A stretch of 64,000 nt of DNA from Armatimonadota bacterium. GTDB taxonomy: Bacteria > Armatimonadota > SYMT01. Each line of letters starts with the position of its first letter. The stretch's first letter is position 1. The notes beneath the pieces were generated by a model. It saw nothing but the letters and a program-made list of their open reading frames with translations, did no database searches and was not told the DNA's origin. The translations under genes were made by a program, and so were the position numbers. The stretch spans positions 149,340 to 213,339 of the forward strand of contig JBKBRF010000005.1 in NCBI GenBank assembly GCA_046292385.1, written 5' to 3'. Shown here piece by piece: positions 49,765-49,963 of this stretch.

Positions 49765-49802
49765 CGGGCAAGCGCGGAAGATCGGCCGTAGCGCCCCCTA
49801 CG

Positions 49803-49875
49803 GCCGGGGTAGCTCAGTGGTAGAGCGGTCGGCTCTCTAACCGACTGGACGCTGGTTCGAGCCCAGCCCCCGGCC
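49803..49875 (+). tRNA. tRNA-like RNA 1, non-canonical 8-nt anticodon loop CUCUCUAA, isotype undetermined
   Basis: Acceptor GCCGGGG/CCCCGGC, D arm GCTC-AGTGGTA-GAGC, anticodon stem GTCGG/CCGAC, variable TGGAC, T arm GCTGG-TTCGAGC-CCAGC. No CCA. Confidence 0.8.
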
Positions 49876-49890
49876 CTGCAGAATGTCGCG

Positions 49891-49963
49891 TGGGAGATAG
49901 CTCAGTGGTAGAGCGCCCGGCTCGAAACCCGGGTGGACGCTGGTTCGAGCCCAGCTCTCCCGC
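49891..49963 (+). tRNA. tRNA-like RNA 2, non-canonical 8-nt anticodon loop CUCGAAAC, isotype undetermined
   Basis: Acceptor TGGGAGA/TCTCCCG. D arm, variable loop and T arm are identical to RNA 1. Anticodon stem CCCGG/CCGGG. No CCA. Confidence 0.8.

Follow-up and report, generated by a model that had tools for sequence, protein, structure and literature searches.

Twin tRNA-shaped RNAs with eight-nucleotide anticodon loops form the RNA half of a compact, mobile protein-plus-RNA module

Two tRNA-shaped RNAs and a protein gene in an Armatimonadota contig

The DNA analysed here (the window) is a stretch of 64,000 nucleotides (nt) from an Armatimonadota bacterium of the lineage SYMT01 (assembly GCA_046292385.1, contig JBKBRF010000005.1, positions 149,340 to 213,339 of the forward strand). 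It carries an open reading frame (ORF) for a protein that we call X, followed by two tRNA-shaped RNAs. A first-pass annotation, made from the sequence alone, had singled out the two RNAs; it contained neither the conserved partner X nor the mobility of the pair. We describe here the module that they form, its anatomy, its mobility, and its genomic company. Its three parts in the window are:

48343..49764, + strand: gene of protein X (473 amino acids), the protein half of the module (ORF translation, homologue searches)
49803..49875, + strand: RNA 1, tRNA-shaped (ARAGORN, Rfam tRNA model, family covariance model)
49891..49963, + strand: RNA 2, tRNA-shaped (ARAGORN, Rfam tRNA model, family covariance model)

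ARAGORN predicted tRNA genes at 49803-49876 and 49890-49964, with the four-base “anticodons” ctct and cgaa, respectively, and the Rfam tRNA model (RF00005, gathering score 29) gave 60.0 bits for RNA 1 and 55.9 for RNA 2. A covariance model of the RNA family described below scored them at 92.9 and 87 bits; its maximum in 40 relatives of the bacterium was 78.6 bits, and the two top-scoring matches there, checked with ARAGORN, are ordinary tRNA-Asn genes. A blastn search with the RNA pair against 40 relatives also returned ordinary tRNAs only. The architecture reported in the first-pass annotation can be read directly from the sequence: positions 8-26 (D arm and base 26), the 5-nt variable loop, and the T arm are the same in both RNAs, whereas the acceptor and anticodon stems are unlike yet fully paired (7/7 and 5/5 pairs in each RNA, with a U1:G72 wobble in RNA 2). 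The nucleotides of the tRNA tertiary interactions (U8, A14, G18-G19, the T loop, and the 5-nt variable loop) are all present. A G at position -1 stands opposite C73 in both RNAs (49802/49875 and 49890/49963), as had been noted, and neither encodes CCA, which is usual in this genome, where a reading by eye found only three sequences of the ARAGORN list ending in CCA. The same list contains about ten “tRNAs” of 76-97 nt devoid of the usual D- and T-arm motifs (e.g., C3:273003-273099, C10:106510-106604, and C25:54105-54199), which look like high-GC (guanine-cytosine) false positives.

Both anticodon loops have 8 nt, in the sequence as in the ARAGORN calls: CUCUCUAA in RNA 1 (49833-49840) and CUCGAAAC in RNA 2 (49921-49928). 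The five bases that follow CUC are identical in RNA 1 to positions 34-38 of the genome's own tRNA-Arg(UCU) (5/5), and in RNA 2 four of five equal those of its own tRNA-Phe(GAA), in agreement with the earlier reading of Arg(UCU) and Phe(GAA) loops with one extra C after U33. Ordinary genes for both tRNAs are present in the genome, and the window RNAs are only 71% and 75% identical to these would-be cognates, no closer than to unrelated tRNAs. Among the contigs of one sequencing run (probably of DNA), parts of X were matched at 151/151 and 150/151 bases; over the RNA genes, the same run yielded only unlike tRNA contigs of other organisms. Scanning 48000-50400 for promoters and terminators yielded a single terminator-like site, which is within chance expectation, and nothing like a promoter.

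Protein X

The X family is large and anonymous. A word-indexed search found 1632 homologues, nearly all hypothetical or unnamed, and a profile search of 1.84 billion representatives yielded 552 clusters at 50% identity (E ≤ 0.001), mostly of 420-500 amino acids, together with shorter fragments and a few proteins of up to 581; longer fused forms were sought and none was found. X has no match in Pfam (E ≤ 0.001), NCBIfam, PADLOC-DB 2.0 (E ≤ 1), or PHROGs, nor in PDB by sequence, either as a single protein or as a profile, and a search of the ESM Atlas found nothing. One homologue bears the UniRef label “ZorC EH domain-containing”, which we rejected since 30 members of the family gave no such Pfam match. 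Likewise, no TROVE match appeared among 30 members scanned against Pfam at E ≤ 1. The AlphaFold2 model of X is almost entirely helical, with a mean pLDDT (predicted local distance difference test) of 83.5, a pTM (predicted template modelling score) of 0.78, and a poorly modelled C-terminal stretch of 70 residues. Foldseek found no PDB structure similar to it at E ≤ 0.001, and the best Z score of an exhaustive VIA-align comparison, 5.6, is at the noise level for helical proteins. Across 47 diverse members, several basic (R16, R126, R137, R144, R308, and K331) and polar (D215, S294, N298, N305, D339, and H415) residues are nearly invariant; they might serve in RNA binding and perhaps also in catalysis. 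A weak Rfam match to dauA at the 3' end of the X ORF (49564-49661; 25.1 bits, gathering score 45, E 0.58) is probably due to chance.

X and its RNAs spread together across bacterial phyla and viruses

Together with X, the two window RNAs make up a compact module that moves horizontally, X being its protein half and the RNAs its RNA half. As a family probe we used the 22 bases of the variable loop and T arm (49846-49867, + strand; the same bases occur at 49934-49955 in RNA 2), scanned exactly against the contigs of one genome per species. It found 18 loci in Alphaproteobacteria, Actinomycetota, Bacteroidota, and Myxococcota (from Hyphomonadaceae, Sphingomonas, Asticcacaulis, Micromonospora, Hymenobacter, and Sandaracinaceae). 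All 18 contain tRNA-type genes, two in a row at 14 of them, and in 13 of these 32 genes ARAGORN could not read the loop as a triplet. An X homologue lies directly upstream in 18/18, full length and 43-49% identical in 17; the one in locus L038 is a fragment cut by the contig end.

The reverse search started from an alignment of 30 X homologues, the single X sequence having found no relative locus. It detected 255 X relatives on genome contigs and, among the best 80 of them, which were kept, 78 have a plus-strand tRNA-like gene at most 450 nt after X. As to the exceptions, L087 retains a degenerate RNA copy after X, seen by eye, and L070 (Streptomyces, 4027-7331) shows a tandem duplication of X with a tRNA-like gene between the copies and none after the second. 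On metagenome contigs there were 184 X relatives; 80 were kept, 74 of them offer at least 230 nt after X, and one to four RNA genes follow X in 72 of these 74. Eight X loci were found on viral contigs of uncultivated phages, seven with RNA after X. In the viral locus L126, two odd tRNA-like genes (7810-7973; ARAGORN “ggga”) are placed upstream of X, not downstream. A phage X found no match among the cultured phages of INPHARED. Seven plasmids, five from Streptomyces and one each from Hymenobacter and Miltoncostaea, also encode X. Judged by record titles, the carriers belong to at least nine phyla, including Planctomycetota, Acidobacteriota, Chloroflexota, Cyanobacteria, and Verrucomicrobiota as well as Pseudomonadota (alpha, beta, and gamma), Actinomycetota, Bacteroidota, and Myxococcota. 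X is a single-copy gene in the genome studied here and was missing from all 60 relatives searched, of which 6 share the family of the bacterium, 1 its order, and 53 its phylum.

The limits of the module are tight. A comparison of 26 diverse loci found no further conserved gene and, when 34 Streptomyces loci are compared with L079, DNA similarity starts about 35 nt before X and mostly ends within a few bases of the RNA 3' end; a promoter-like pair (TTGACC/ATGAT) can be seen by eye just before the RNA in the Streptomyces loci. In 11 loci, including phage (L121, L122, and L123) and Planctomycetota ones, the stop codon of X is formed by U8-A9-G10 of the RNA (in L121, at 9369-9371), so that X and RNA must lie on one transcript there. 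The last X codons of these loci coincide with the 5' strand of the acceptor stem, and cutting the RNA at its 5' end would remove the X stop codon.

A constant tRNA body with a variable anticodon loop

The RNA family was studied with 99 distinct members for covariation and 194 for a census of the loops. In the first set, 96.7% of the cells are paired in the cloverleaf, compared with 77.8% after shuffling and 37-48% when partners are slid, and both sides have changed in all seven acceptor pairs and in three anticodon-stem pairs. The proposal that the stems are under selection for structure is therefore confirmed, and decay, the alternative to it, is refuted by this covariation together with the 194-RNA family and the link to X. 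The core is almost invariant across phyla (U8, A14, G18-G19, the T loop, and a UGGAC variable loop), and next to the loop the anticodon stem has three fixed pairs, C-G, G-C, and G-C (97/99, 99/99, and 99/99, respectively). The acceptor helix tends to continue beyond pair 1:72, with at least one extra pair in 155/194 RNAs and at least three in 76/194, and base 1 is U or C in 60/99. The -1:73 pair belongs to this extension and can be of any base type, G:C in only 5/99 and C:G in 45/99. As the window RNAs also have no GUG anticodon, the suggestion that G-1:C73 marks them as related to tRNA-His does not hold.

The enlarged loop seen in the window is a property of about half the family, occurring on the same scaffold in 94 of 194 RNAs; 90 have loops of 7 nt, five of 6 nt, and five of 9 nt. 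Loops start with CUC in 182/194. Among 36 distinct tails of 8-nt loops (counted by eye), 22 begin with U and 14 with G, and A and C are missing at this place, in line with bacterial wobble positions. When the third tail base is G, the next base is G as well in 8/9 cases; in the other tails, it is G in 0/27. The habit recurs in the 7-nt loops when these are read in the normal register (6/8 vs. 2/24). Real tRNAs for codons starting with C carry G37 after G36. From this G36-G37 habit, the 7-nt loops can be placed in the normal register with C34 and the 8-nt loops read as having one extra C after U33, so that the register deduced for the two window RNAs extends to the whole family. The variable stretch thus resembles what real anticodon loops carry at positions 34-38. 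Among the 7-nt loops, the commonest ones are identical to the Lys(CUU) and Gln(CUG) loops of the genome studied here, and the loop CUCUUGGA is common to Planctomycetota, Verrucomicrobiota, Bacteroidota (Hymenobacter), and phages. One constant body serves dozens of “anticodons”: most CUU members, for example, have G73, not A73. A pyrimidine occupies the would-be purine position 37 in 16 of the 36 distinct 8-nt tails, mainly in Streptomyces. The Micromonospora loci L022-L037 break the CUC rule, the loop of the second RNA of each pair starting with CUA or CCA; these RNAs have A at the wobble place (agg, aga, and atg for ARAGORN), which is unusual for bacteria.

Loop and body evolve at very different tempos. 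We binned pairs of loci, mostly from Streptomyces and not independent of each other, by X identity. At 90-95% identity, the RNA body differs by 0.5%, the variable part of the loop by 16%, and four-fold degenerate sites of X by 20%; the corresponding values are 2.2%, 22%, and 39% at 80-90% identity, and 5.7%, 77% (the random level), and 51% at 70-80%. Loop turnover close to the silent-site rate on a frozen body is compatible with frequent switching of loop type. There was no indication of positive selection on the loop, its variable part not exceeding the four-fold rate in any of the three bins with X identities of 80% or more.

Genomic neighbourhood

Upstream of X, the window contains three further recognisable features:

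47517..48233, + strand: HNH endonuclease ORF, directly before X (Pfam HNH, 1.7e-14), not a conserved part of the module
42514..43476, - strand: tyrosine recombinase of the phage-integrase family (Pfam Phage_integrase, 6.7e-44)
within the ORF 40268-42952: N6_N4 DNA methylase domain (Pfam)

The recombinase and the methylase lie 5-8 kb upstream of X, and GC content dips to 0.655-0.674 at 44-48 kb. With several family-less ORFs besides these genes, the whole interval 40268-48233 is island-like, and the stretch upstream of X is possibly an integrated element. HNH genes are also found near X in the phage loci L121 and L122. On the other side, a run of signalling genes (50840-59455) encodes a zinc-ribbon and FHA protein (50840-51463), a kinase-like and PP2C protein (51313-53325), a VWA protein (53319-54722), and two Ser/Thr kinases (55028-57445 and 57446-59455, the latter with WD40 repeats). 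Sets of FHA, PP2C, VWA, and kinase genes have been proposed as conflict systems.

We surveyed the neighbours of X by annotating about 53 loci and running a tblastn panel over 186 loci. Genes for RNA repair, tRNA processing, and other functions were found as follows:

L046: X, RNA, P-loop kinase, Thg1-like protein, Hen1, Pnkp
L056: X, RNA, kinase, Thg1-like protein
L033: X, two RNAs, Hen1, Pnkp
L055 and L148: Hen1-Pnkp 3.5-4 kb upstream
L040 and L131: kinase and RNA-ligase-like ORF
L142: RtcB directly before X
L185: class II synthetase-like ORF and PolyA_pol/CCA-type nucleotidyltransferase, on either side
L122 and L157: RNase T
L136: SpoU methylase
L121 (viral): Thg1, RNA ligase, DUF488
L122 (viral): two radical-SAM genes
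L124 and L125 (viral): HAD_SAK_2
L127 and L128 (viral): RlaP beside a portal gene

The presence of Hen1-Pnkp within 5 kb of X in three independent lineages, in about 0.4 Mb of flanking sequence, is by a rough estimate, rather than a computed test, far above chance. The 7-Mb genome studied here has one Hen1-Pnkp pair (C64:24554-28512), far from the window and 65% and 69% identical to the pair of L046. In viruses, the module sits inside tRNA arrays, with 7 tRNA genes in L121, 7 in L123, and 23 in L122 (module RNAs included). A group II intron reverse transcriptase and IS605 OrfB/TnpB-type genes occur near the module in L044 (Ktedonobacter; 3129-4946 and 9897-11213) and in the phage locus L123 (11305-12477).

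What the module may do

The first-pass annotation had left two possibilities for the RNAs, natural quadruplet-type tRNAs or non-translational tRNA mimics. We favour the second because of the link to X, the anticodon-independent body, and the extended acceptor helix, and retain the first as a rival. More precisely, we tentatively propose, with a probability of roughly 0.4, that the RNAs are non-translational mimics of anticodon loops and that, together with X, they play a part in conflicts over the cleavage and repair of tRNAs. X would bind the tRNA-shaped RNAs, and the resulting ribonucleoprotein would take part where toxins or defence nucleases that cleave tRNAs are opposed by repair. The RNA might serve in it as bait, decoy, or specificity element for proteins that read particular anticodon loops, among which anticodon nucleases and other tRNA-targeting toxins are candidate targets. 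The loop stands as an exchangeable, anticodon-loop-like cassette on a frozen tRNA core, CUC being fixed and the rest copying positions 34-38. The extra C sits where many anticodon nucleases cut. The module itself, its anatomy, its mobility, and its genomic company are shown by the sequences; binding of RNA by X, absence of the RNAs from decoding, and the decoy or bait role are what we infer in this proposal.

Several observations weigh against it. In roughly half of the family, the loop has the ordinary 7 nt and is the same as in real Lys(CUU), Gln(CUG), and Met tRNAs, as would suit working tRNAs. Neighbours related to RNA repair or tRNA processing were found in about a dozen of the ~53 annotated loci, and in most loci, the window included, the neighbours are unrelated. 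X has no recognisable fold or motif in the sequence and structure searches. Substitution rates do not point to an arms race, and some of the loop variation could be due to relaxed constraint. Finally, the cloverleaf parser behind the family statistics required the D, anticodon, and T stems to be perfect and 5/7 or more acceptor pairs to form, and many of the family sequences are close kin (Streptomyces); calls by ARAGORN, which are independent of the parser, also find family RNA genes.

The alternative that survives best, doubtful as we consider it, is that the RNAs are working tRNAs: the 7-nt members would decode NNG codons with C34, the 8-nt members would decode NNN+G or shift the frame by +1, and X would be a maturation, charging, or escort factor. 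Phages and mobile elements might then carry the set as nuclease-proof backups or to recode genes of hosts or rivals. All nucleotides of the tRNA tertiary interactions are indeed kept, the 7-nt loops equal the genome's own Lys(CUU) and Gln(CUG) tRNA loops, the G36-G37 habit could reflect a modification of position 37 for decoding, the module stands among ordinary tRNA genes in phage arrays, and in L185 it is flanked by the synthetase-like ORF and the CCA-type nucleotidyltransferase. The 8-nt loops share their length and their layout (CU, four bases, and two more) with +1 frameshift suppressors (sufJ and SufB2) and engineered quadruplet decoders, and the extra base of sufJ is located 5' of the anticodon, as in the module loops. 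Those suppressors are, in contrast, single-insertion mutants of a cognate tRNA, an origin that the 71% and 75% identities do not support for the window RNAs, and they have neither one constant body for many anticodons nor a dedicated protein. Of the features of canonical elongator tRNAs, the cloverleaf is present in the window RNAs, and the 7-nt loop and the anticodon-matched identity elements are not. With body and acceptor constant across anticodons, the cognate synthetases would lack their usual identity elements, such as A73 in most CUU members or A20 in the Arg-like window RNA. Base 1 is most often U or C, the pairing of leader and trailer past 1:72 in 155/194 RNAs would be awkward for RNase P and for a free NCCA end, position 37 is a pyrimidine in 16 of the 36 distinct 8-nt tails, 10 of 194 loops have 6 or 9 nt, and X resembles no synthetase in any search made. 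Streptomyces ProRSx, which is accompanied by anomalous tRNA-Pro genes whose anticodon varies between strains and is a case of deliberate mistranslation, also combines a protein gene with an adjacent odd tRNA gene of variable anticodon; it differs in being a recognisable prolyl-tRNA synthetase. Decoding by a natural, selected 8-nt loop does have a precedent in the yeast mitochondrial tRNA-Thr(UAG) (PMC7609411). That case concerns one tRNA of an organelle, which has a synthetase of its own and goes with a reassigned codon, and not a mobile protein-RNA module of many loop types. Phage tRNAs that escape anticodon nucleases through changes of the anticodon loop (PMC10264068 and PMC11555353) resemble the module RNAs in being phage-borne, in their altered loops, and in the tRNA-cleavage conflict. 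In other respects they are normal and chargeable, and they have no partner protein, whereas the module changes the length of the loop and its body ignores the anticodon.

It is unlikely, in our estimation, that the module is a toxin with an RNA antitoxin, like type III or abortive infection systems, in which X would target tRNAs and the RNA would act as an uncleavable pseudo-substrate restraining it until infection or stress. A compact protein-plus-RNA pair moving between phyla, plasmids, and phages, in single copy, with a patchy distribution and unrelated neighbours, has the typical traits of such systems. Moreover, the RNA loop imitates the anticodon loop of a specific tRNA with a distorting extra C, the X stop codon inside the RNA in 11 loci ties the expression of the two together, and D215, N298, N305, D339, and H415 of X could form an active site. 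Nevertheless, up to four RNAs with different “anticodons” per X would fit several outside enemies better than one toxin target, the phage tRNA arrays and the company of repair genes suit protection rather than attack, and X has no PADLOC match and showed no nuclease fold or motif in the searches made, an outcome with which an RNase would still be compatible. In type III systems (ToxIN and relatives), which share with the module a mobile protein and a structured RNA, an endoribonuclease toxin is preceded by tandem repeats that make up the antitoxin RNA; the module has no such upstream repeats and instead places one to four cloverleafs downstream of an X without fold match.

In a further reading, which we consider distinctly improbable, the module would be a self-contained, mobile recoding kit, with X a charging or escort enzyme of new fold for the constant body, irrespective of the anticodon, and the RNAs four-base (NNN+G) or C34 decoders, through which phages, plasmids, and islands would reprogram translation. 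If true, it would provide the first natural, widespread family of quadruplet-decoding tRNAs with its own orthogonal partner protein.

We see as a long shot a quality-control particle similar to that of Ro and Y RNA, in which X would hold the constant body and recruit tRNA-handling enzymes or misfolded RNAs, leaving the loop unconstrained. The passages of PMC7824862 on Rsr (the Ro60 orthologue) and its tRNA-like Y RNA YrlA offer a precedent in RNA-repair operons, and both systems have protein and tRNA-mimic RNA side by side, links to RNA-repair genes (RtcB-type or other), and a presence in some large phages. RtcB lies directly before X in L142, the link to RNA repair holds in a minority of module loci, and the variable part of the loop does evolve at about the silent-site rate. 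The loop is, however, far from random, being 7 or 8 nt long in 184/194 RNAs, with U or G at the tail start in 36/36 and the G-G rule, and identical loops such as CUCUUGGA recur in distant lineages. In the Pfam scans, X showed neither a TROVE nor a vWA domain, and Y RNA has a long Ro-binding stem and no anticodon-loop cassette, unlike the module RNA, a complete 73-nt cloverleaf scored as tRNA. There is a negligible chance that the RNAs are duplicated tRNA genes in decay or an artefact of sequencing or assembly, for which only the unusual loop length speaks, given perfect stems with compensatory changes, the same architecture in 194 distinct RNAs from many independent assemblies, and the strict link to a conserved protein.

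Significance

The module lacks a defining feature of each of the closest known systems, and we rate it as a new kind of system. No description of it was found in full-text searches of the literature, and a mention in RNA-repair reviews or preprint supplements may exist; a 2026 preprint on bacterial tRNA mimics concerns other RNAs. Annotation pipelines label the 7-nt members as ordinary tRNA-Lys, tRNA-Gln, or tRNA-Thr, and X as hypothetical. For structural biology, X represents a conserved protein family of 552 clusters without known fold, and for tRNA biology, the RNAs provide a natural set of tRNA-shaped molecules with 8-nt loops, of which 94 distinct ones were found. The natural substrates of Pnkp/Hen1, RtcB, and Thg1-like proteins are still debated, and the module is a candidate partner or substrate for tRNA-targeting immunity and for these RNA-repair enzymes. 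If the interpretation as anticodon-loop mimics is correct, bacteria, plasmids, and phages of at least nine phyla would share an undescribed RNA-protein machine built on the tRNA scaffold; and whether decoy, quadruplet decoder with an orthogonal partner, or tRNA-mimic antitoxin, each would be a new principle.

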